Source of the DNA: Patescibacteria group bacterium
GTDB taxonomy: Bacteria; Patescibacteriota; Minisyncoccia; UBA6257; GWB1-50-10
DNA length: 39,757 nt
Direction of reading: 5' to 3'
NCBI GenBank assembly: GCA_030018585.1
Contig: JASEHZ010000003.1
Coordinates: 1 to 39,757 of the forward strand
The notes below the pieces were generated by a model. The model ran no database searches, was not told the DNA's origin, and worked only from the letters and a program-made list of their open reading frames with translations. The translations under genes were made by a program, and so were the position numbers. How positions within the stretch are numbered: the first letter of the stretch is position 1; every line of letters starts with the position of its first letter. Below are positions 3,592 to 16,202 of the stretch, in pieces.

Positions 3592-3648
3592 AAATATGGT
3601 AATACTTTACTACGCCCAAATACTAAATTCAACCCTTCAAAAAAAGAG

Positions 3649-4371
3649 TTATTCCAATTTCCCTAAAAACACTTTTTCTAATACATCGCTACCCAAAATT
3701 GATTCGGGCGCGCCTTCAATTGCTACCCTACCCTTGTCCAAAATATAAGCCCTACGAACAATACTTAATACTGACTTAATATTATGTTCAACAATCATAA
3801 TCGCGGTTTTATGACGCTCATTTATTTCTTTGATTTTTTGAAAAACTTCCTTAACTATTTTTGGCGCAAGACCAAGCGATGGCTCATCTAATAACAAAAC
3901 TTTCGGATCAACGATTAATCCACGCGCCAAGGCAAGCATTTGCTGTCCTCCGCCTGAAAGCATGCTCGATTTTGTTTTTAATTTATGTTTTAACAGCGGA
4001 AAAGTTTCCAATACTTCGCTAATTCTCCTTTTTACTTCCTTTTTATCCCTCACAATATAACCGCCCATTTCAAGATTCTCTAAAACAGTTAAACTGGAAA
4101 ATATTTGCCGCCCTTGAGGCACAAATGAAATTCCCAAGCCGATTACTTCGTAAGTGACTGGTTTAATTCGCTTTTCATGCCATAAAACTTCTCCAGAATG
4201 AATCGGCGTTAAACCAAAAATAGTTTTTAAAACCGTTGATTTGCCGGCGCCGTTCGGCCCCATCAAAGCCACAATTTCGCCTTCGTCCAATTTAATTTGA
4301 ACGCCGTCCAAGGCGCGAACGCCGCCATAATAAACCGCGATATTTTTAAGTTCTAATAATGTCTCCGACAT
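3649..4371 (-). CDS. livF: Branched-chain amino acid ABC transporter ATP-binding protein
   Basis: GPNGAGKST, VPQGRQIF, LSGGGQQMLA, LLLDEPSLGLAP. Confidence 0.9.
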   Translation of the reverse strand: MSETLLELKNIAVYYGGVRALDGVQIKLDEGEIVALMGPNGAGKSTVLKTIFGLTPIHSGEVLWHEKRIKPVTYEVIGLGISFVPQGRQIFSSLTVLENLEMGGYIVRDKKEVKRRISEVLETFPLLKHKLKTKSSMLSGGGQQMLALARGLIVDPKVLLLDEPSLGLAPKIVKEVFQKIKEINERHKTAIMIVEHNIKSVLSIVRRAYILDKGRVAIEGAPESILGSDVLEKVFLGKLE

Positions 4372-4822
4372 AAAGTTAAAAAGTTATAAAGTTTAAAGTT
4401 CTTAAAGTTTCTTAATAAAACCCGACAATAATCTCGCAGTTTCAAGAGCTAAATTACAACATTGCCCGAAATCTTTCTCGCCAATATACTTCAATTCAAG
4501 TGCTATATAAAGCATCGATCTTACTTCTCCGCAAGAACCTTTTGCGATATACAAAAATTGTTTTAATTCCTTATTACTCCTTCTTTCAAATCCTTCCGCA
4601 ATATTATTAGTTATGCTAATCACCGCTCTTTGGATCTGGTCTCGAAAACTAAAATCGCGATTATCTTTCAAGATCTTATATATCAACAGAGAAAGTTCTT
4701 TGCCTTTTTGCCAAGAAATAAGTTGTTCAAACTTTTCTATTTTCATATCTTTACAACTTTTTACTTTACAAACTTTATAACTTTCTAAACTTGATTAGCT
4801 TGATAACTTTACACCTTTGTCT
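4372..4822. repeat. Low-complexity AAAGTT / AACTTT short repeat arrays in inverted orientation flanking the four-helix-bundle gene
   Basis: aaagttataaagttt (4380-4394) is the exact reverse complement of aaactttataacttt (4770-4784); several more degenerate units on each side. Confidence 0.7.
4402..4746 (-). CDS. Four-helix-bundle protein (23S rRNA IVP / bAvd-like family)
   Basis: FEQLISWQK...DQIQRAVISITNNIAEGFER...FLYIAKGSCGEVRSML signature. Confidence 0.9.
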   Translation of the reverse strand: MKIEKFEQLISWQKGKELSLLIYKILKDNRDFSFRDQIQRAVISITNNIAEGFERRSNKELKQFLYIAKGSCGEVRSMLYIALELKYIGEKDFGQCCNLALETARLLSGFIKKL

Positions 4823-5587
4823 CTACTCCCCAAGATATGCTTCAACTACCTCCTTTTTCTTGAGCACTTCTTCTGGTTTGCCTTCAGCTAATAATTTGCC
4901 GCTATCCAAAACAAAAACATGATCGCAAAGCTCACGGATTAAATTCATATCATGCTCAATTAAAATCACGGTTTTGCCTTGAACACGCAATTCATTTACA
5001 ATCGCTGCTATGATTTTTGCCATTTCCCGGAAAATCCCGGCAAACGGTTCATCAAAAAGATAAATTTCCGCATTCATGGCCAGCGCCCGGGCAATTTCCA
5101 AGAGTTTCCGCTGGCCATAAGAAAGGTTTTTAGCAAGTTCGTGACGCTTTTCCCACAAGTTCACACGACGCAAAATTTCCTCGGCCCTTTTCAAATGAAA
5201 ATCACTATGTTTTTCAAATAAAGAACCAAACACATTTCTTTCGGTCAAAACAATCAGGATATTGTCCAAAACCAGCATTTGATTAAAAAGCCGAACATCT
5301 TGAAAAGTCCGGGTTATGCCGTAAGAAGAAACCTCGTAAGATTTTACTTTTGAAAGCCACACGCCGTCAAAAGAAACCTTTCCATCATCAATTGGCAAGA
5401 TACCACTTAACGCGTTAATGAGCGTTGTTTTGCCAGAACCATTAGGCCCCACAATGCCAGTCACCTTCCCTTTCTCAATCGTAATTGATAAGCCGTCAAC
5501 CGCATACACTCCGCCAAAGTGCTTTACTAAACCCCGTACAACAATTGCAATTGGTTTAATATAATTTGATTCAGTTTGATTTTCCAT
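4823..5587 (-). CDS. livG: Branched-chain amino acid ABC transporter ATP-binding protein
   Basis: FGGVYAVD, GPNGSGKTT, RTFQ, LSYGQRKLLEIARALA, V.EAYLG. Confidence 0.9.
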   Translation of the reverse strand: MENQTESNYIKPIAIVVRGLVKHFGGVYAVDGLSITIEKGKVTGIVGPNGSGKTTLINALSGILPIDDGKVSFDGVWLSKVKSYEVSSYGITRTFQDVRLFNQMLVLDNILIVLTERNVFGSLFEKHSDFHLKRAEEILRRVNLWEKRHELAKNLSYGQRKLLEIARALAMNAEIYLFDEPFAGIFREMAKIIAAIVNELRVQGKTVILIEHDMNLIRELCDHVFVLDSGKLLAEGKPEEVLKKKEVVEAYLGE

Positions 5588-5674
5588 AAATAACTATTTT
5601 GTAAAACGATTTATTACAGTAATTGTCGTACGGGGTAAATTTTTTGTTTCTAATACTTGAGTCAAAATAAAATG

Positions 5675-6808
5675 TTATTCATACTTCACAAACTGACCAT
5701 TTTTTACGGTTTTTACCACAATAGGAATTACTGGATCGCCATTTGAATCAAATTTTATTAAACCGGATACACCATCATAACTCGTTGCATATAATGCTGT
5801 TTTAATACAATCGGTATTAACGCCACATTCTTTTAGAGCGTCGGCGATAATGTAAACCGCATCATACATCAAAGGTGCAAAACCACCAGTTTCAACATTA
5901 AATTTATCTTTATAAGCCTTCATATAAGCTATTGTCTTAGGATTGCTAGTTTGCGCCAGAAAATGATAAGGATAAATAACCCTCTCGGCTAACCCCCTTA
6001 AATCTTCAACTAATTTCTGATTTTCAAATGGCGGACCAGCCAAAAATTTAGTTTTCAAACCCAATTCACTCGCCTGCTTGATAACCATTGATTGTTCTTG
6101 ATAACCACCGATAAAAAGAGCATCTGGATTTTTTGCTTTTATTTTTGTAAGCTGACTTCTAAAATCCTGATCACCCTGCGCGTAGCTTTCCTCGGTAATA
6201 ATTCTACCGCCTAATTTCTCTGCCTCACTTTTTACGGTATCTCTTAAAGCAATGCCGAATTCGTTATTTATATAAATTGTCGCAATGTTTTTAAGCTTAA
6301 GTTCTCTGATTACAACTTTCATAAGTTCAGCAGAATAATAAGAAGCTGATGGCTGTATTCTAAAAATGTAATCACCGGCACTGCTTATTGCCGGCGCAAT
6401 GGCCTCTGCCATAACAATAACTTTTGCTTTCTCGGCGATTGGCGCATTTGCTAAAACAACACCCGAGACCCAAGAACCCAACACAATTGATACTTTATTA
6501 ACGTCAACTAATTTTTGCATAACGCTGGCACCGATTTTTGCATCCGCCTGATCATCTTCATATACAACTTCTAAATTCTTACCATTAATACCCCCCCCCC
6601 CCGCACTATTTACTTCTCCACGAGCAAGCTCAATAGCATTTTGTATTTCCTTGCCATAAAATTCATTCTTGCCACTTAACGGTAAAACTGCACCAATCTT
6701 GATAGTTTCATTCGAAACCGGTTTATTGCCCACGAAATATACAATCACAACGACTACAATAATACCTACCACCCACCACCATATATTTTTTGATTTATTA
6801 GTTTCCAT
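5675..6808 (-). CDS. LivJ/LivK-type ABC substrate-binding protein, N-terminal membrane anchor
   Basis: IKIGAVLPLSG, GING..LEVVYEDD, DFRSQLTKIK, YDAVYI, GVSG.IKFD.NGD. Confidence 0.88.
   Translation of the reverse strand: METNKSKNIWWWVVGIIVVVVIVYFVGNKPVSNETIKIGAVLPLSGKNEFYGKEIQNAIELARGEVNSAGGGGINGKNLEVVYEDDQADAKIGASVMQKLVDVNKVSIVLGSWVSGVVLANAPIAEKAKVIVMAEAIAPAISSAGDYIFRIQPSASYYSAELMKVVIRELKLKNIATIYINNEFGIALRDTVKSEAEKLGGRIITEESYAQGDQDFRSQLTKIKAKNPDALFIGGYQEQSMVIKQASELGLKTKFLAGPPFENQKLVEDLRGLAERVIYPYHFLAQTSNPKTIAYMKAYKDKFNVETGGFAPLMYDAVYIIADALKECGVNTDCIKTALYATSYDGVSGLIKFDSNGDPVIPIVVKTVKNGQFVKYE
6591..6602 (-). repeat. G12 homopolymer within the binding-protein CDS
   Basis: 12 consecutive C on plus strand, encoding AGGGGING. 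Confidence 0.9.
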
Positions 6809-6831
6809 GATTTTTCTTTTTATTCATTTTT

Positions 6832-6972
6832 CCCAGTAGTAGAAACTCGATTAATTTTTATTTAATGAAATTCGACTTGTTTTATAACTCTTGTATTTTA
6901 TGCCCATTTTCGTGATTTCTCGAAAAATCTTTTATTCGCCTGTAGCGAAACAATCGAGTTTTCACTACTGGG
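6832..6972. mobile_element. Empty MITE-like element, 21-bp imperfect terminal inverted repeats
   Basis: cccagtagtagaaactcgatt (6832-6852) / aatcgagttttcactactggg (6952-6972), 19/21 match; ttttt on both sides. Confidence 0.6.
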
Positions 6973-7092
6973 TTTTTGACCTTTTTCTGCTTCTGCTATT
7001 TCCGCCGACTAAACGGAACGCATGTTTTTTACCCCCACACCATAAGATAAATTATAACTTATACTCTCCCATTAATCCTTGCGGACGGTAAA

Positions 7093-7376
7093 CCCCCACA
7101 CCAAATTTATTTTAAACTCTCCACTAATCTCTTTTTGAGTTGTGTAAAGGCTCGACTTCGAAGTTTTGGGCTTGATTCTCTGCGTCGAGCGTCCGACTCC
7201 GCTTTGTACGCCTCGAAACACAACAACTCAAAGGGACAACGAGTTTTTGTGGAAAATATTTTTCCACTATTATGCTCTTGAAGTCGTCGTCTCAAATCAT
7301 TAATCGAACCAATATAAAATTTATCGTCTTTCAAGTTTTTTAAAATATAGACGTAGAACATAATTTGGTGTGGGGG
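7093..7376 (-). mobile_element. Inverted-repeat-bounded GIY-YIG cassette 1
   Basis: acccccacaccaaatt (7092-7107) / aatttggtgtgggggt (7362-7377) perfect; taaa direct repeat at 7089-7092 and 7377-7380; extra arm copy at 7028-7042. Confidence 0.7.
7107..7361 (-). CDS. Small GIY-YIG nuclease (UPF0213/SLX1-like)
   Basis: FYVYIL...FYIG...DLRRRLQEHN...RE motif set. Confidence 0.85.
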   Translation of the reverse strand: MFYVYILKNLKDDKFYIGSINDLRRRLQEHNSGKIFSTKTRCPFELLCFEAYKAESDARRRESSPKLRSRAFTQLKKRLVESLK

Positions 7377-7383
7377 TAAAGCA

Positions 7384-8250
7384 TCATAATTTATATTCCC
7401 CGATCAGACCCTGAGGTCTATATAACATTAACAGCATCAATATAATCCCGTAAATCACCTGACGCATTTGAGCTGCAATTTCATTAGGCATGCCCACAAA
7501 GCGCAAAATTTCCGGAATTAAAACCAAAAATATCGCGCCCAAAATTGAACCGCGCAAATTCGCAAGCCCGCCCAAAATAATTATTGCCAAAATAAAAATT
7601 GATTCGTTTAAAGTAAAAGTTGACGGGTCAATAAAAGAAATATAAGCCGCGAACAAAGAACCAGCCACAGCTGCTATAGCTCCGCCAATAACAAAAATAG
7701 AAAGCTTATAATGATGGGTATTATAACCGAAAACCTGCAATGCTTTTTCGTCTTCCCGAATACCTTTTAAAACTCTGCCGAAAGAAGAATCAACAACAAA
7801 ACAAGATATAAAATAAACAAGGACTGCAAATAAAACAACCAACATTAAAAATATCAGATTCTCGGAAAAATTAATGCTAAAAATGTTTGGCCTTGGAATT
7901 CCTGGAATACCAAGCGGCCCGCGAGTTAAATCCTGCCAATTCAAAAAAATACTGAAAATAATCACATTAAAACCGAAAGAACCTAAAGCATAATAATCAT
8001 CTTTAAACCGGTTTAAAATCATACCCACTGCAAGCGCAATAATACTGGAAACAATAACTCCTATCAATATAGAAACAAAAAAACTCACTCCAAGTTTTGT
8101 GGCAAGAATTGCTGTAGCATAAACGCCAATGCCGTAAAAAGCCGCGTGAGTAACAGATAAAAGCCCCGTATAACCCACAACCAAATTCAAGCTCAAACTT
8201 AAAATCACATAAATCGCTATAAGGATTGCTAAATGTATTAGATATTCCAT
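7384..8250 (-). CDS. livM: Branched-chain amino acid ABC transporter permease
   Basis: SLNLVVGYTGLLS..HAAFYGIG, LTRGPLGI, S.FGR.L..IREDE, RPQGL.G. Confidence 0.9.
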   Translation of the reverse strand: MEYLIHLAILIAIYVILSLSLNLVVGYTGLLSVTHAAFYGIGVYATAILATKLGVSFFVSILIGVIVSSIIALAVGMILNRFKDDYYALGSFGFNVIIFSIFLNWQDLTRGPLGIPGIPRPNIFSINFSENLIFLMLVVLFAVLVYFISCFVVDSSFGRVLKGIREDEKALQVFGYNTHHYKLSIFVIGGAIAAVAGSLFAAYISFIDPSTFTLNESIFILAIIILGGLANLRGSILGAIFLVLIPEILRFVGMPNEIAAQMRQVIYGIILMLLMLYRPQGLIGEYKL

Positions 8251-8507
8251 CCCGTACGAAACAGGAAACGCTTTAAACGAGATTTAATAAAACGTTTTCC
8301 TCCTCCTGATTTTAAATATAACTCTCTCGACCTTGCATCGTCTTGATCAATACAAGCCTCATAATAAATTAATTTGAACGGACCTCGTCCTTTTGTATAA
8401 GTTGACTTGCCATCATTATGTTCTTTAAAACGCTTCCGTAGATCATTTGTATACCCAGTATATAATTTACCATTTTTTAAACTCTTCAAGATATAAACGT
8501 AAAACAT
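8238..8507 (-). CDS. Small GIY-YIG nuclease (UPF0213/SLX1-like); probable start ATG 8507, upstream ATG 8534 is the duplicated livM start
   Basis: MFYVYILKS...LYTGYTNDLRKRFKEHN...RELYLKSGGG. Confidence 0.88.
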   Translation of the reverse strand: MFYVYILKSLKNGKLYTGYTNDLRKRFKEHNDGKSTYTKGRGPFKLIYYEACIDQDDARSRELYLKSGGGKRFIKSRLKRFLFRTGWNI

Positions 8508-8529
8508 GTCTGATTTGTTTCGTACGGGA
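8250..8529 (-). mobile_element. Inverted-repeat-bounded GIY-YIG cassette 2 inserted at the livM start codon
   Basis: atcccgtacgaaaca (8249-8263) / tgtttcgtacgggat (8516-8530) perfect; tccat direct repeat at 8246-8250 and 8530-8534. Confidence 0.8.
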
Positions 8530-8535
8530 TCCATA

Positions 8536-9396
8536 TTATTTATTGATTAACCCGCGAGGACGGAAAATCAGAAAAATTATCAAAAGCGCAAAAGCAATCG
8601 CGTCTTTCCACTCGCCGGAAATCTGCCAAATACCGAAATTTTCCACAAAGCCCAAGAAAAACGCTCCAAGGACACCACCATAAACGCTGCCAATGCCGCC
8701 GATAATTGACGCAATCACGCCCTTTAAAAGCAAGCTCATACCCATAGTCGGCTCAATACCCGTATCAAAACCAACCAAAATACCGGCAAGTCCGGCAATC
8801 GCCGAACCAATAAAAAATACCCGGCCAATAATTCGGTTGGTATTAATGCCAACAATTTTTGCCACTTCTTCGTTATCGCTTGTTGCCACAATCGCTTTAC
8901 CGAAAGAAGTTTTTTTAAACATAATTAAGAGTCCAGCCATAATAACAATGCCGCACAAGAAAATAATTAACTGGGTTTGGGTAATGATACCGCCAAAAAT
9001 TTCATAAGTTTTTTCAAAACCAATGTTCCGCGAAAGCGTTTGAAATTGGCTCGAAAATAGAATCGCAATGATCGCCTGAATCACAGTAAAAGCTCCAAGC
9101 GACGCCACCAGAAGAACCATGTTTGAAGCTTTTCTTTTCCGGAGCGGTAAATAAACAATTTTATCCAAAAGATAGCCGATAAATCCGGCAACAAAAATTC
9201 CGGCGACAACACTCAAATAAATATCAACTCCAAGCATCTGCGCTAAAAAGAAAACAATATAAGCGCCCACGGCCGCTAAAACACCGTGAGCCAAATTAAA
9301 GAACTTGGTCGTGCTATAAATCAAGTTAAATCCAAGCGCAACCAAAGTATAAATTGAACCGGCAATAATGCTATTTAAAATAAGTTGAGGCAACAT
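8536..9396 (-). CDS. livH: Branched-chain amino acid ABC transporter permease
   Basis: GSIYTLVALGFNLIY...NLAHG, IIGGIGSVYG, FRPRGL. Confidence 0.9.
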   Translation of the reverse strand: MLPQLILNSIIAGSIYTLVALGFNLIYSTTKFFNLAHGVLAAVGAYIVFFLAQMLGVDIYLSVVAGIFVAGFIGYLLDKIVYLPLRKRKASNMVLLVASLGAFTVIQAIIAILFSSQFQTLSRNIGFEKTYEIFGGIITQTQLIIFLCGIVIMAGLLIMFKKTSFGKAIVATSDNEEVAKIVGINTNRIIGRVFFIGSAIAGLAGILVGFDTGIEPTMGMSLLLKGVIASIIGGIGSVYGGVLGAFFLGFVENFGIWQISGEWKDAIAFALLIIFLIFRPRGLINK

Positions 9397-9453
9397 TTAT
9401 ACTTTAAAAACAATAGAATAATTATAAATTCTTTTATTATAGCTGTAAACGAA

Positions 9454-9481
9454 ACCCAGCCATTCCATGGAATGGCTGGGT
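9454..9481. terminator. Perfect 28-bp palindrome; probable terminator or REP-like hairpin after the binding-protein gene
   Basis: acccagccattccatggaatggctgggt; minus-strand tail TTCGTTT. Confidence 0.6.
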
Positions 9482-9518
9482 AAATTTTTATTCGCGTTAA
9501 GAATTAGTTATTTAAGAA

Positions 9519-10691
9519 TCACTTTTCTGTATATAATTCACTTTTCCCTCCTTTTATAATCAAAACTTTAAAATCTACATTTTTTACTTCCCTATCAGCA
9601 CCAAATTCAATCACCGGCATACTCTCCGCTCCTTTATAAACGGTTTTTGCTAACTCATCAATTATTGCTTTATGATCAGTGCCAACCCTACCAATCACCT
9701 GAGCAAGAATTTTTATGGCATCGTAAGCAAAAGCCGCAAATGATTGATAAACTTCTTTTCCAGCAAAACTATTAAGTTTTTCCCTAAATACCGGCGAATC
9801 ATAAGTTTTAGCAACTGTATACAATACACCTTCAGCTTCTTTAACGCGCCAGATTTCCTCGCCATCAAAGGCATCGCCGCCGACAATCGGAACATTAACC
9901 GCTAATTCTTTTAATTGCTTGATGGCAGCAGAACCACTTGCTGGATAAAGCGCAGTATAAACAACATCAGGCTTGGCAGCTCTTAATTTTGTAACTAAAG
10001 TTCTAAAATCTTTAATATCTTGAGCAACCCCTTCGTCAAATACTACTTGCCCGCCCAATTCTTTAAAACGATTCACAAAAACTTCATTAATCCCTTGACC
10101 CCAATCATTTTTCACATACAAAACTGCAACTTTTGTTTTCTTTAAAGTGTTAAAGATATATTCAGCCGCAAATTTTCCCTGAAAAGCATCGGAAAAATAA
10201 ATTCTGAAAATATGATCGCCAATTTTCGTCAGATTCGGCGCCGAAGCTGTTGTAATTACAACCGGCAGATTATTTTTTTGAGCCACTGGCAATCCAGGAC
10301 CAGCCGCTGCCGAACAAACCGGGCCAATCATTGCTACTACCTTATCGATTTCTGCTAATTTAGTAATCGCATTTACGCCTTTTTTTGAAGTACAGGTGTC
10401 ATCCTCAATAATAAACTCGATTTTCCTTCCATTAATGCCGCCGGCGTCATTTACTTCTTTTACAGCCAATTGCGCGGCAGCAGCTACAGCCTCGCCGTAA
10501 CTTGCCGCCTCACCAGTCATTGGAAAAGAAGCGCCAATTTTAATTGGGCTAGTATCGGCTGCTACTCCAGTTGGGTTTGTTGTTGTGGTATTTCCTCCAC
10601 CTAATGTGGCTAAAAGGTAAATAATACCAGCAAGAACTACCACCATTATTACCCAAAGCCATGTCTTTGATTGTTTTTCTACGGTTTCCAT
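9519..10691 (-). CDS. LivJ/LivK-type ABC substrate-binding protein
   Basis: IKIGASFPMTG, AGGINGRKIEFIIEDD, IGPVCS, YDAIKI; N-terminal TM. Confidence 0.88.
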   Translation of the reverse strand: METVEKQSKTWLWVIMVVVLAGIIYLLATLGGGNTTTTNPTGVAADTSPIKIGASFPMTGEAASYGEAVAAAAQLAVKEVNDAGGINGRKIEFIIEDDTCTSKKGVNAITKLAEIDKVVAMIGPVCSAAAGPGLPVAQKNNLPVVITTASAPNLTKIGDHIFRIYFSDAFQGKFAAEYIFNTLKKTKVAVLYVKNDWGQGINEVFVNRFKELGGQVVFDEGVAQDIKDFRTLVTKLRAAKPDVVYTALYPASGSAAIKQLKELAVNVPIVGGDAFDGEEIWRVKEAEGVLYTVAKTYDSPVFREKLNSFAGKEVYQSFAAFAYDAIKILAQVIGRVGTDHKAIIDELAKTVYKGAESMPVIEFGADREVKNVDFKVLIIKGGKSELYTEK

Positions 10692-10838: not shown

Positions 10839-11612
10839 TTAAAAACCAACCCTCTCGCCGTTCGCATTAATTGAGATAAGCCCTGATGCCCCCGGCCACT
10901 CCACCACACTTCTAAACCATTTGGCAATTTTTTCGCCATCCAAGCCAACGCCAATAATCGCATCCCGTGTTAAAAAAACCGCATCATACATTAATTCCGC
11001 AAAAACCGGGTGAGACAATTCTTTTTTATATTGTTCTTTATAAAGGCGGGATAAGTTTTGGAATTTTTCGTTTTTATAATTCGGCGAAAACGACTTATTC
11101 GGAAAAATACTTACAAAAAATAAATTCTGCCCCAAGTTAAATGAATTTTTAGTTGAACCCGAAATTAAAGGAATTTTATATTTTTCCGCTACCGGCAACG
11201 CTCCCAATGTTTCTTTGTCGCAAAAACCACCAATCACCACCCTGACTTCTTCTTTGACTAATTTTTCCATAGCTTTCTCCGCATCATTGCTATTACACAC
11301 TCCATCTTCGACAAAAAGCTCAAAATTATGGCTCCTTGCACCGCCTTGAGCATTAATTTCTTTAACTGCTAATTCCAAAACATTCTTTAAAGGAACGCCG
11401 TAAGAAGATTGTTTTTCGGTTAGGGGCAAAATGGCGCCGATTTTTATAAAATCACCTTGCCTCATTCCTAATTTATCAACTGACAGTTTGGGAATAAAAA
11501 ATGACGACTCTTTAAAATAACTTACGATCAACGCCAGAATAATCGCGCCAACAAAAACAAGACAGCCGTAAATCTGCTTTTTAGTTAAACAACATTTCCT
11601 TTCTTGTTCCAT
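10839..11612 (-). CDS. Internally deleted LivJ/LivK-type binding protein
   Basis: IKIGAILPLT...EDGVC...IGGFC then jumps to YDAV...GASGLISINANGER; about 120-130 aa shorter than paralogs. Confidence 0.7.
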   Translation of the reverse strand: MEQERKCCLTKKQIYGCLVFVGAIILALIVSYFKESSFFIPKLSVDKLGMRQGDFIKIGAILPLTEKQSSYGVPLKNVLELAVKEINAQGGARSHNFELFVEDGVCNSNDAEKAMEKLVKEEVRVVIGGFCDKETLGALPVAEKYKIPLISGSTKNSFNLGQNLFFVSIFPNKSFSPNYKNEKFQNLSRLYKEQYKKELSHPVFAELMYDAVFLTRDAIIGVGLDGEKIAKWFRSVVEWPGASGLISINANGERVGF

Positions 11613-12846: not shown

Positions 12847-13241
12847 GCTGTTTTTGACTAAAATTTCAAGCCCAATTGCAGCGCAGAAAATTTAGCTGCG
12901 AATTTGAGCACCGAGCACATAAAACATAAAACCAGTGTTCGATATTTCGACTTGTTGATTTGTATTATTAAAATTGATGAATATCATATGTTATCTTTAG
13001 TAATTTATGTGCTCGGTAAGTCACCGCACTATCCCGACTCCGACTGCGGTCGGAAGAGGTTTAGGTGCGCGATCCCGCACCCTCCTGAACCCATAATCTT
13101 ATCATCTCTTTACGGGCTCGGGAAGTGCGGGATCCTCGCACCTTCGACGCTCATTCCATTCGCGGGAAGGTGCGGGAGTTTTGTCTATAAAATTACTTCT
13201 TCGCCAGCTGGCGAATCGTAATTTTATACAAAGCCCTTACT
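12841..13241 (-). promoter_or_regulatory. Candidate structured cis-regulatory RNA upstream of rplQ (copy A)
   Basis: Multiple perfect stems and colinear motif conservation with 15520-15802. Confidence 0.65.
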
Positions 13242-13986
13242 TCTTTTTGCCCTTCTTTTCTTTTTCTTTATGTTTAACAACCTCAACTTTAAGAACTTCT
13301 ATGGCGGAAATTTTATCAAAATGATCTTTCAAAATATTGGCTGATTTATGAACAGCTTCTGAGGGACTAATTGAACCATCGGTTTCCACTTCAAGCTGCA
13401 GACGATTGTAATCAGTTCGATCACCGACGCGCATATTTTCAACAAAAAACGTCACTCTCACAATTGGCGAAAAAATAGCATCGAGCACAACCGTGCCAAC
13501 CGGCAATCGCTCAAGACGACGCGCTTCGGCTGGCACATAACCCAAACCCTTTTCAACTGTTAATTCTGCATCAAAATCAGCGTTTTTCTTTGTTAAGCTC
13601 GCAAGATAAAGTTCTGGATTTACAACTTTAACCAAAGTCGTACTTTGAATATCGGATGCTTTTATTTCTTTTTCGCCTTTCGCTTTTAAAGCTAAAACCT
13701 GCGGCTCTTCGGCAAAAAAATGAAAACGAACTTTTTTTAAATTAAGAGTGAATTCAACAATGTCTTCTATCATTCCCGGCAGAGTCGAAAATTCATGATC
13801 AATATTTTTAATTTTAATTTGAGTAATGGCTGCTCCCGGCAACGACGAAAGCAGTGTCCGACGGAGAGCATTGCCTAAAGTATTGCCATAACCAGTATAA
13901 AGACCTTCAATGTAAAAAATGCCGATATTTTCTTTTTCGGAAATTTTTTTAATTTCGACTGTTTCGCTTAAACGTGAATATTTCAT
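13237..13986 (-). CDS. rpoA: RNA polymerase alpha subunit, lacking the alpha-CTD
   Basis: GYGNTLGNALRRTLLSSLPGAA, HEFSTLPG..ED, VENMRVGDRTDY; ends in Lys-rich tail at 249 aa. Confidence 0.95.
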   Translation of the reverse strand: MKYSRLSETVEIKKISEKENIGIFYIEGLYTGYGNTLGNALRRTLLSSLPGAAITQIKIKNIDHEFSTLPGMIEDIVEFTLNLKKVRFHFFAEEPQVLALKAKGEKEIKASDIQSTTLVKVVNPELYLASLTKKNADFDAELTVEKGLGYVPAEARRLERLPVGTVVLDAIFSPIVRVTFFVENMRVGDRTDYNRLQLEVETDGSISPSEAVHKSANILKDHFDKISAIEVLKVEVVKHKEKEKKGKKK

Positions 13987-15525: not shown

Positions 15526-15802
15526 GCCGATTATGTATAAATTTTCGAGTCTGTAGACGATGAAAATTTATCTACAGAATCGAGCACCCCGCCCTTTTGC
15601 TTTCGTGAATTTGAATCCTGAAACAAAGCAAAGCGGAGCCCAGCACTACAACTTCGTTGTAGTGCTGGACGGAGCGATCCGACTTCGTCTTTATTTTTAT
15701 ATGTTTTCATAAATATTGCCATAAAAGGGCGGGGTAAGGTTTGATTAATAAATTTTCTGTTTCGTCAGCTGACGAATTGAAAATTTATATCAAGCCCTTA
15801 CT
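15520..15802 (-). promoter_or_regulatory. Candidate structured cis-regulatory RNA upstream of rpsM (copy B)
   Basis: Multiple perfect stems and colinear motif conservation with 12841-13241. Confidence 0.65.
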
Positions 15803-15916
15803 TTAACCTTGCCTTTGTTTATGTTTGGGATTCTGACAAATAACATAAACGCGCCCTTTGCGGCGAACTGTCTTGCATTTCATACAAATCTTTTTTACTG
15901 ATGATCTTACTTTCAT
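15803..15916 (-). CDS. rpmJ: 50S ribosomal protein L36 (missing from the ORF track, 37 aa)
   Basis: Manual translation [37 protein letters not shown]; CxxC...C...H zinc ribbon. Confidence 0.97.
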
Positions 15917-16042
15917 CCCTCACCCTTTGAGAATCATTAAGAATAATTCTCTTATAAAATATTGACCTTTTGTTATATTGATTATAGTCATAAATAAATT
16001 TGGATAAATAACCCTGGAAAAGAATCCTCAAAGGGTGAGGGA
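15916..16042. mobile_element. Empty MITE-like element abutting the rpmJ start codon
   Basis: atccctcaccctttgag (15915-15931) / ctcaaagggtgagggat (16027-16043) perfect 17 bp; flanks ttca / ttcg. Confidence 0.6.
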
Positions 16043-16202
16043 TTCGTCCCTTTTATCGATTTGGATAAATGCTTAGTATTCATAACATAAATTTTATAAT
16101 TTGGTTTTGGTTGTTTCTAGCGGGTTCATTCCCCACAAAAAATACGAACGCTAAATTGCTTCAAAACAAAATATCCGCAAAAATCTTAATTGTACAATCT
16201 GT

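Follow-up and report, generated by a model that had tools for sequence, protein, structure and literature searches.

Introduction

Single-domain GIY-YIG nucleases that work together with hairpin repeats have been described as the Ssn system (Chenal et al. 2025, Nat Commun, PMC11893778), whose representative in N. meningitidis comprises about 94 aa. According to the main text of that paper, SsnA binds a hairpin repeat (NTS/SRM) in single-stranded DNA (ssDNA) only and cuts a few nucleotides 5' of the hairpin, and Y6A, Y17A and E64A are its active-site mutants; Ssn homologues differ in specificity, and 42% of them are hairpin-flanked on both sides. The NTS-ssnA-NTS arrangement is called "identical" in layout to an insertion sequence, the authors raise domestication, and the role proposed for SsnA is restriction of incoming ssDNA. 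As far as this main text goes, the role of single-domain GIY-YIG nucleases and hairpin repeats outside Neisseria was left open. Here we analyze a window of 39,757 nucleotides, the whole of a contig (JASEHZ010000003.1) from assembly GCA_030018585.1 of a Patescibacteria group bacterium, in which a GIY-YIG gene bracketed by inverted repeats stands between livH and livM, two permease genes of a branched-chain amino-acid transport operon. This element, hereafter cassette 2, is probably a copy of a mobile family of about 275-280 bp with perfect terminal inverted repeats of 13-15 bp, whose sole gene encodes a nuclease of about 86 aa of the UPF0213/Ssn kind.

Several other systems share features with this locus. 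REP/BIME-RAYT and IS200/IS605 likewise combine a small enzyme acting on ssDNA hairpins with many non-autonomous intergenic hairpin copies; they differ in employing the Y1 fold, and no Y1_Tnp domain was found in the source genome. IS200/IS605 elements have subterminal hairpins, lack terminal inverted repeats and produce no target duplication. Assignment to that class was rejected, since PF01797 was not found in the source genome, the repeats are terminal and a duplication is present. Bacterial MITEs (miniature transposable elements with inverted repeats), such as the Correia elements of Neisseria and the Rickettsia palindromic elements, resemble the shorter members described below in their length of about 100-150 bp, terminal inverted repeats and short duplications, as well as in being co-transcribed with neighboring genes, abundant in small genomes and present as stems in mRNA; the difference is that MITEs either originate from or rely on classical transposases or lack a known enzyme. 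The same catalytic core is found in BH0048 (1zg2) and EF2693 (1ywl), structural-genomics entries titled only "hypothetical UPF0213 protein", and in SLX1, which differs in having extra domains and a partner and in cutting branched double-stranded DNA. In open-access text and preprints, the scope of our literature search, no report of MITE families ending exactly on start codons was found (in PMC11602168 the terms "start codon" and "GIY" do not occur), and the Ssn paper was the only prior description of elements of this kind.

Results

A GIY-YIG element at the start codon of livM

The source genome (G000; 682 kb, 37% G+C, 43 contigs, marker completeness 99.5%), of which the window is contig C25, was compared with 40 others, 41 genomes in all, one of which (G001, same genus) was fetched almost whole. 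The liv operon of the window, identified with Pfam, lies on the minus strand. The features of the livH-livM junction are as follows.

8536-9396, minus strand: livH permease (list of open reading frames (ORFs); Pfam BPD_transp_2, E 6.8e-44)
8530-8534, minus strand: upstream target copy ATGGA (plus strand TCCAT), occupying the former livM start position (sequence)
8516-8530, minus strand: left (5') terminal inverted repeat ATCCCGTACGAAACA (repeat search; 15 nt, 100% complementary)
8251-8529, minus strand: putative inserted element, 279 bp, TCCCG...CGGG plus A (sequence, repeats; alternatively 8250-8529 with a 4-bp duplication, as matched by the full-length pattern)
8238-8507, minus strand: GIY-YIG nuclease ORF with its own ATG at 8507, 89 aa (Pfam PF01541, E 1.1e-18)
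8249-8263, minus strand: right (3') terminal inverted repeat TGTTTCGTACGGGAT, its last two bases being the AT of the livM ATG (repeat search)
8246-8250, minus strand: downstream ATGGA copy, the working livM start (sequence; LivM relatives start MEY / ATGGA)
7384-8250, minus strand: livM permease, 288 aa (Pfam BPD_transp_2, E 5.4e-47)

On the mRNA strand the junction reads ...AATAAATAA T ATGGA TCCCGTACGAAACA aatcagac ATGTTTTAC...CGTTTCC TGTTTCGTACGGG ATGGA ATATCTAA. The livH stop codon TAA (8538-8536, minus strand) is followed by T at 8535 and then, 1 nt past the stop, by the upstream ATGGA. The two arms, of 15 nt and 100% complementary, lie 252 nt apart and form a terminal inverted repeat, and the 13-mer core of the repeat occurs just twice in the window, both times as an arm. 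The initial annotation had read this junction as livH stop, ATGGA, inverted repeat, GIY-YIG gene, inverted repeat and second ATGGA opening livM, and every one of these parts was recovered. The outermost A-T pair of the arms also belongs to the direct repeat, so that two boundaries can be drawn: the duplication is either 5 bp (ATGGA), with TCCCG...CGGG as the element, or 4 bp (TGGA), with TCCCG...CGGGA. Together with the comparisons below, these features show an insertion that hit livM at the first base of its start codon, 4-5 bp (ATGGA) being duplicated in the process.

PF01541 matches the protein with 67.7 bits, and that of a second element in the operon (cassette 1, see below) with 53.5 bits, the curated cut-off being 22.6. 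With 75-96 aa and one Pfam domain, the proteins stay within the limit of 150 aa for single-domain proteins of the Ssn family. The nearest solved structures by sequence are BH0048 (E 1.5e-11), EF2693 (2.4e-06) and SLX1 (1e-04). Y3/Y5, R26, H30 and E62 are invariant in the five intact GIY-YIG proteins of the source genome and align with BH0048, and the YIG tyrosine Y16 is present in four of the five, being His in L007; from the superfamily literature and the SsnA mutants we take Y3/Y5, Y16, R26, H30 and E62 to be the catalytic residues. Read from the duplicated ATG at 8534 the protein has 98 aa, in frame and with no intervening stop. At the other end the frame crosses the right arm and terminates at TAA (8240-8238), 13 nt from the A of the livM ATG, so that translation confirmed the annotated passage of the nuclease ORF through the right arm into livM.

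Empty livH-livM junctions in relatives

Removing 8251-8534 yields TAA-T-ATG-GAA-TAT, i.e. TAAT joined straight to ATGGAATAT, which the initial annotation had proposed as the empty site to be sought in relatives. LivM is present in five of the 41 genomes, including the source genome. In G040, whose LivM is 73% identical, the junction reads cgaTAATATGGAGTACCTC, with the empty form TAATATGGAG; its liv operon is compact, contains neither a GIY-YIG gene nor the 23S-rRNA-intervening-sequence-protein (IVS-protein) gene found in the window, and has livM and livG overlapping as ATGA. The livM gene of the window is intact and equal in length to that of G040. The corresponding junctions are TAGatttATGGAGTAC in G017 and ttttttaATGGAATAC in G011, while G001 is uninformative here, because window positions 3633-9520 are missing there altogether.

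This survey was extended to 80 LivM relatives from metagenome contigs (66-74% identity), 78 of which have at least 60 nt upstream. ATGGA stands at the tabulated livM start in 76 of the 78 loci; the other two starts are mis-tabulated, and one of them (L209) reads, on checking, TAAAATGGAATAT. A stop codon and T directly precede ATGGA at 32 of the 78 loci, nine of which have exactly TAAT ATGGA, and a GIY-YIG match upstream of livM is absent from all 80 loci. ATGGA thus occurs twice in the window and once in G040, G017, G011 and 76 of the 78 metagenomic loci. The relatives therefore carry the predicted empty junction, and the comparison that could have overturned the insertion bears it out.

Nuclease-bearing elements of the same family

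We refer to elements with terminal inverted repeats of the TCCCG...CGGG type as class A. Among 80 relatives of the cassette 2 protein taken from species-representative genomes, 12 carry a repeat of the cassette 2 type, TCCCGTACGAAAT or TCCCGTTAGAGAC and variants, at other loci of genomes that public records label Patescibacteria/Paceibacterota. These elements are 273-280 bp long, and at 10 of the 12 loci they are flanked by an exact 4-6-bp duplication that starts with ATG: ATGAC, ATGCAA, ATGAG (twice), ATGA (twice), ATGAA (twice), ATGAAA and ATGGA. At 11 of the 12 loci an ORF of 146 aa or more starts with the right-hand ATG. What had been proposed from the window, an element of about 280 bp with terminal inverted repeats, a target-site duplication and a GIY-YIG gene as sole content, is thus borne out, the same architecture recurring at 12 other loci with differing ATG-starting duplications. 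By a full-length pattern search, class-A elements of this kind are present in eight of the 41 genomes. As far as can be judged from these sequences, class A appears to be widespread in ultra-small bacteria and to land on gene starts; its preference for ATGNN at real start codons is sharp.

At the 3' end the nuclease frame in every case passes through the right repeat. At eight of the 12 loci the nuclease stop lies at +4 of the host ATG, overlapping it as ATGA, which is the arrangement of translationally coupled genes. In L074 and cassette 2 the host starts are ATGC and ATGG, so the fourth base is not A, and both frames stop at +13. The conserved nuclease C-terminus ..KRFLFRTG is encoded by the right repeat, which is therefore coding, leaving the element without a stop codon of its own. 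The 5' end is a different matter. An upstream ATG copy in frame with the nuclease and open is found in four of the 12 elements that have such a copy (L073, L080, L092 and cassette 2), about the chance rate, and in the remaining frames the short upstream ORF has its end somewhere from 13 nt ahead of the nuclease ATG to 29 nt past it. Of the suggestion that the upstream ATG captures coupling from livH, the open frame at cassette 2 stands; as a designed feature it does not, and it is incidental. The same division holds for the proposed translationally non-polar build, which is supported at the 3' end by read-through of the right repeat and by the eight stops on the TGA of a host ATGA, and weakened for the upstream in-frame ATG.

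The repeats were compared over 28 class-A elements, 13 with and 15 without the gene. In 26 of them the repeat is perfect over 13-14 nt from the TCCCG end and then breaks off abruptly; at nine of 13 repeat positions the elements differ, a change in one arm being matched in the other, and only two mismatched cells were counted among the 28 elements. Between cassette 2 and loci L073-L078, nonsynonymous divergence (dN) is 0.08-0.18 and synonymous divergence (dS) 1.0-2.1 (dN/dS about 0.05-0.13), which marks these as old lineages under strong purifying selection. Since the repeat lies within coding sequence and the length is held at 273-280 bp at dS above 1, gene and repeats evolve as a unit; the nuclease and its repeats co-evolve.

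Two class-A copies in G019 are identical at 279 of 280 positions, and blastn detected no similarity between their flanks. Copy 1 adjoins the ATG of a 414-aa ORF and copy 2 that of recR; the recR copy has an exact ATGA duplication, and the flanks of the other differ by one base (ATGTA vs ATGAA). Near-identical copies at unrelated genes support recent movement.

Two side observations concern this class. The recR start is occupied by differing family members, an element without an ORF in the source genome (C40:24093-24215) and a nuclease-bearing one in G019 (L272, C8 1501-1780), and is empty in G001; the host sequence at recR, ATGATYCC, looks like the duplication followed by the end of the element itself. 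In the source genome, C34:6412-6668 holds a frameshifted GIY-YIG pseudogene with a class-A-like left end (ATGCATCCCGATCGAAAT) and no partner arm, adjoining a serine-recombinase unit.

Elements without an open reading frame

The source genome also contains 18 ORF-less pairs of the form ATCCCGTTAGA...TCTAACGGGAT, 74-180 bp long and mostly of about 123 bp. Their position was examined with an offset test, in which the outer ends of all perfect inverted-repeat pairs of at least 11 nt, 40-400 nt apart, were related to the ATG of ORFs of at least 100 aa. An offset of -2 was obtained for 19 pairs and each other offset for 1-7. Of these 19 pairs, 18 are of the ATCCC type, namely 16 of the 18 ORF-less elements, cassette 2 and one ATCCCTCACCC element. 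The outer end of these 16 ORF-less elements, out of 18, thus lies 2 nt inside the ATG of such an ORF, in one orientation. The genes downstream have unrelated functions and include a PMT-family glycosyltransferase, recR, topA, nusG, secY, rpsC, a class I tRNA synthetase, a type IV coupling protein, an RNase J-like protein, rplI, eno, rpmJ, ychF, a prepilin peptidase and others. As the Pfam domains of these genes set in at residues 1-15, the ATGs are true starts. With a crude gene model, the source genome has 259 ATGRA sites at predicted starts, 2617 inside genes and 508 intergenic non-start sites; if only genic insertions were purged, about 34% of the elements would be expected at starts, compared with the 16 of 18 observed. 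In genes behind such elements half of the ATG lies within a 15-bp stem, about 125 nt from the former ribosome-binding region.

Twenty sites (the 18 ORF-less elements, the C24 GIY-YIG element and a class-A copy at C5) were compared with G001. An orthologous start exists there for 18, of which 16 are empty, one (C4:10977) has the element in both genomes and one could not be resolved. In a clean case G001 has aaatctATGAAACC where the source genome has aaatctATGA-element-ATGAAACC; clean cases also comprise an ATGAATA(A) repeat at C21:8493 and TATG at the C24 nuclease element. Left copies other than ATGA (ATAA, ATTA, ATTT, ACGA, TTTA) are 1-3 changes away from it. The ORF-less pattern followed by ATG is found in 16 of the 41 genomes and in none with a reversed-pattern control. 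These 16 include all eight genomes with a full-length class-A element and eight of the 33 others (Fisher's p about 1e-4, which is overstated, the genomes being related and hence not independent).

Two interpretations of the ORF-less elements were rejected: they are not coding, since indels break the frame between copies, and they are not deletion derivatives of the nuclease elements, since the repeats alone are common to both. Two ORF-less elements of the window are listed here.

6832-6972, minus strand: ORF-less 141-bp element, repeat CCCAGTAGTGAAAACTCGATT (repeat search)
15915-16043, minus strand: ORF-less 129-bp element of the ATCCCTCACCC class, ending on the ATG of rpmJ (L36; Pfam Ribosomal_L36 residues 1-37)

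The CCCAGTAGTGAAAACTCGATT repeat class is shared with the GIY-YIG elements at C30:21856-22161 and C24:1195-1499 of the source genome, and the element at rpmJ is absent from that site in G001.

Inside ORF-less class-A elements, a motif AGTCG(A/T) recurs about 65 nt from the start across genomes (e.g. C40:61266-61387 of the source genome; G012, G018, G019, G036), and a short hairpin precedes the 3' arm, its stem varying with pairing kept (GGTCGCC/GGCGACC, GGTCGTC/GACGACC, GATGTGC/GCACATC). The internal motif or hairpin might be the real recognition site of the nuclease.

Other repeat classes

Inverted repeats closely enclose all five intact small GIY-YIG ORFs of the source genome. They are perfect and 15-21 nt long or, in the case of C30, near-perfect and 20 nt long, and each has a different sequence; a sixth locus, the frameshifted one on C34, has no such repeat pair.

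Cassette 2: ATCCCGTACGAAACA
Cassette 1: ACCCCCACACCAAATT
C24: CCCAGTACTACAACTTCGA
C30: CCCAGCAGTGAAAACTCGAT
C1: ACCGAGCACATAATTTTATAT

Across the 80 GIY-YIG relatives, a perfect flanking repeat of at least 12 nt is present at 42, compared with three of 288 windows shifted within the same loci. An adjoining direct repeat of at least 4 nt is found at 17 of the 41 relatives with enough flank, compared with 2.9% of re-paired flanks.

Cassette 1 belongs to one of these other classes. It occupies 7092-7377 on the minus strand, with a 16-nt perfect repeat ACCCCCACACCAAATT around the ORF 7107-7361 (repeat and Pfam searches), and possibly has a 4-bp duplication TTTA if its ends are read as CCCCC...GGGGG; L142 likewise has this repeat class and TTTA flanks. 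A third arm of the repeat (TGGTGTGGGGGTAAA, mRNA strand) lies at 7028-7042, 50 nt past the right arm, and pairs over 15 nt with the left arm plus the TTTA flank; it may be the remnant of a second, nested element. Elements of another class (GCCCCTCACC...) at L126 and L136 have the 5-bp duplications CCTTA and CAGTA. Their insertion site ..TAGCTCAGT presumably represents the 5' end of a tRNA gene, which it resembles, and the element end GGGGC seems to rebuild the acceptor-stem strand.

Further features of the window

The remaining features of the liv operon, all assigned with Pfam, are listed below.

10839-11612, minus strand: binding-protein gene, truncated
9519-10691, minus strand: binding-protein gene, full
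7107-7361, minus strand: second GIY-YIG ORF (cassette 1)
5675-6808, minus strand: further binding-protein gene (livK2)
4823-5587, minus strand: livG
4402-4746, minus strand: IVS-protein gene, PF05635
3649-4371, minus strand: livF

A perfect AT-rich inverted repeat of 15 nt, AAAGTTATAAAGTTT, encloses the IVS-protein gene between livG and livF (region 4380-4784), with no clear duplication seen, and the livG-livF junction of G040, which lacks this gene, reads GAATAAATTTATG; the gene and its repeat may be a second kind of small cassette. In G001 (L052, C39 204-286) about 80 nt replace window positions 3633-9520, i.e. livH, cassette 2, livM, cassette 1, livK2, livG, the IVS-protein gene and livF. 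The LivM of the window is nearer to that of G040, from another family (73%), than to that of G017, from the same family (55%), and the transporter block may have come or gone as one unit.

The intergenic stretches 12847-13286 and 15545-15802 are dense with varied hairpin elements and are both much shorter in G001. An element at 12910-13017 (ACCGAGCACATAAA) shares the repeat of the C1 nuclease element, and another lies at 15586-15735. Three hairpin elements in these stretches share the flanks ..GAGC and AAG.. and may sit inside a larger repeated unit. No tRNA genes are present in the window, and an Rfam scan of the whole window at E <= 1 returned a chance match to mir-7 and none at any element.

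Elsewhere in the source genome, three units of about 1.5 kb (C32:4126-5684, C34:4721-6313 and C14:12484-13998), each encoding one large serine recombinase with the domains Resolvase, Recombinase and Zn_ribbon_recom, have perfect inverted repeats of 24-78 nt at their ends, and a 96-nt repeat surrounds an ORF without a Pfam match at C32:2879-4104.

Discussion

Proposed mechanism

A tentative extension of the mobile-family reading, to which we give somewhat less than an even chance, is that these are the smallest autonomous DNA transposons known, in which the nuclease of about 86 aa reads the hairpin of its own terminal inverted repeats in ssDNA and directs insertion at start-codon ATGNN. By analogy with SsnA, the left and right repeats would pair as a hairpin in ssDNA; the element's own nuclease would recognize this hairpin and cut beside it, as SsnA does at the NTS hairpin; host repair and ligation would complete the move; and the ORF-less elements would be moved in trans. 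Expression would be tied to the host gene. The livM gene of G040 has no room for a ribosome-binding-site spacer (TAA, T, ATG) so that its translation most likely requires ribosomes to restart after livH. A start lying slightly upstream is within reach of a terminating ribosome. At cassette 2, ribosomes ending livH would restart at the upstream ATG copy, translate the nuclease, terminate 13 nt into livM and start again at its ATG, leaving the operon unpolarized.

The comparison with Ssn, made with the main text of that paper, agrees with such a pairing of nuclease and hairpin. Both have a single GIY-YIG domain of about 90 aa with equal spacing of the two tyrosines and the glutamate, a gene bracketed by inverted-repeat sequence, nuclease variants paired with their own repeat variants, and ORF-less hairpin copies that can fill a genome in hundreds. 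The layouts differ, in that one long-range hairpin encloses the gene here, whereas Ssn has a local hairpin of 20-50 nt on each side; the local-palindrome layout was met in two of the 42 repeat-flanked relatives (L107, L150). The present elements also show duplicated target sites, empty sites, near-identical copies at new loci, targeting of start codons and an overlap of stop and start, none of which is found in the Ssn main text (PMC11893778), where the terms "target site", "start codon" and "Patescibacteria" do not occur. The comparison supports, at the level of sequence, an Ssn-like nuclease-hairpin pairing that would be arranged as a minimal transposon, targeted to start codons and wired into host translation.

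Several points weigh against this picture. To our knowledge GIY-YIG enzymes hydrolyze DNA, and we know of no strand joining by them; duplications of 4-5 bp are the product of DDE transposases. The interiors of ORF-less and nuclease elements share nothing past the repeats, and even there the cassette 2 repeat TCCCGTACGAAACA differs from the repeat TCCCGTTAGAAGCA of the ORF-less elements in the source genome at four of 14 positions. The empty livH-livM sites stem from relatives just 50-74% identical in LivM, and neither an empty allele from the same species nor a circle or an excision junction was seen, an exact search of metagenome contigs with 28 nt of the livM start giving no match. No duplication accompanies 22 of 41 repeat-bounded GIY-YIG loci, so duplications are not universal across repeat classes. 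Re-paired flanks within the ORF-less family of the source genome give a 5-bp match in 29%; most targets being ATGAA, the duplications there are confounded and were rejected as independent evidence, and the case for duplication is thus carried by the empty sites and the varied class-A duplications. The SRM motif (HGTCWY...RNCYNB) has two matches in the source genome, compared with 0-4 in 10 shuffles, and none within 500 bp of the six GIY-YIG loci. Finally, the predicted RNA fold energy of cassette 2 is unexceptional (z -1.43).

Alternative explanations

The strongest of the alternatives, although an unlikely one, assigns movement of the repeat-bounded hairpin element to an enzyme acting in trans, the GIY-YIG gene being a selfish gene carried as a passenger, or encoding a hairpin-directed nuclease with a different task, for example restricting incoming ssDNA, and just being borne along in the loop. 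It would account for the preponderance of ORF-less over nuclease-bearing class-A elements in the source genome (18 vs 1), for the eight of 33 genomes that hold ORF-less copies with no full-length class-A element and for the unrelated interiors, and duplications of 4-5 bp are what DDE enzymes typically leave. Against it, rve, DDE_Tnp_1 and Y1_Tnp (PF01797) were not detected in the 99.5% complete source genome. The other recombinases met there are three large serine recombinases, located in long-repeat elements; these can be counted in favor of a trans-acting enzyme, but serine recombinases make no 4-5-bp duplications. The passenger role also fits poorly with a coding right repeat and a length of 273-280 bp held at dS above 1, by which gene and repeats form one unit, and with the finding that each of the five nuclease variants of the source genome has its own repeat class, matched by ORF-less copies.

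A free-standing homing endonuclease, which would cut empty ATGNN and spread the cassette at the same locus by recombinational repair, with repeats and duplications as by-products, is very improbable. GIY-YIG is a classic homing-endonuclease fold, the only NCBIfam match is TIGR01453 (group I intron endonuclease; E 2e-06, below the family cut-off), and the target sequence is sharply defined. Homing, however, needs homologous flanks and leaves no duplication, whereas the near-identical G019 copies have unrelated flanks and exact duplications are present at 10 of the 12 loci; furthermore, there is no DNA-binding domain beyond the catalytic domain of about 86 aa, and ORF-less copies show the identical site preference. 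The class of homing endonuclease genes was rejected on these grounds, i.e. no extra domain and the presence of duplications and non-homologous sites.

Least probable of all is that the elements are host RNA structures (5' leaders, RNase III sites) spread by duplication and selection with an incidental nuclease gene, because their exact, single-orientation position at start codons, the co-varying stem and internal hairpin, the pairing of the cassette 2 repeats in the predicted RNA fold and the similarly bracketed IVS-protein gene nearby are set against functionally unrelated downstream genes, presence/absence differences between two species of one genus, exact and varied duplications of host sequence, near-identical copies at unrelated loci and the lack of Rfam matches at the elements in the window. 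An RNA role on top of mobility may nevertheless exist.

Significance

The comparative evidence, i.e. duplications, empty sites and near-identical copies at unrelated genes, supports real mobility, and the choice of site, the first base of start codons, including those of the essential secY, topA, nusG and ribosomal protein genes, was absent from the literature searched. If the mobile-family reading is true, a hydrolytic GIY-YIG nuclease may be the only protein of a DNA transposon, which would imply a new transposition chemistry, and a parasite would sit between the ribosome-binding signal and the ATG in a genome of 0.68 Mb without killing the gene; naturally paired nuclease and hairpin specificities would also become available for ssDNA tools. 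Should these be the smallest transposons, the element would borrow the TGA of a host ATGA, being expressed from its target gene and handing ribosomes back to it, and Ssn-type hairpin repeats across bacteria would be non-autonomous offspring. For the annotation of Patescibacteria genomes, such elements are to be expected at gene starts.

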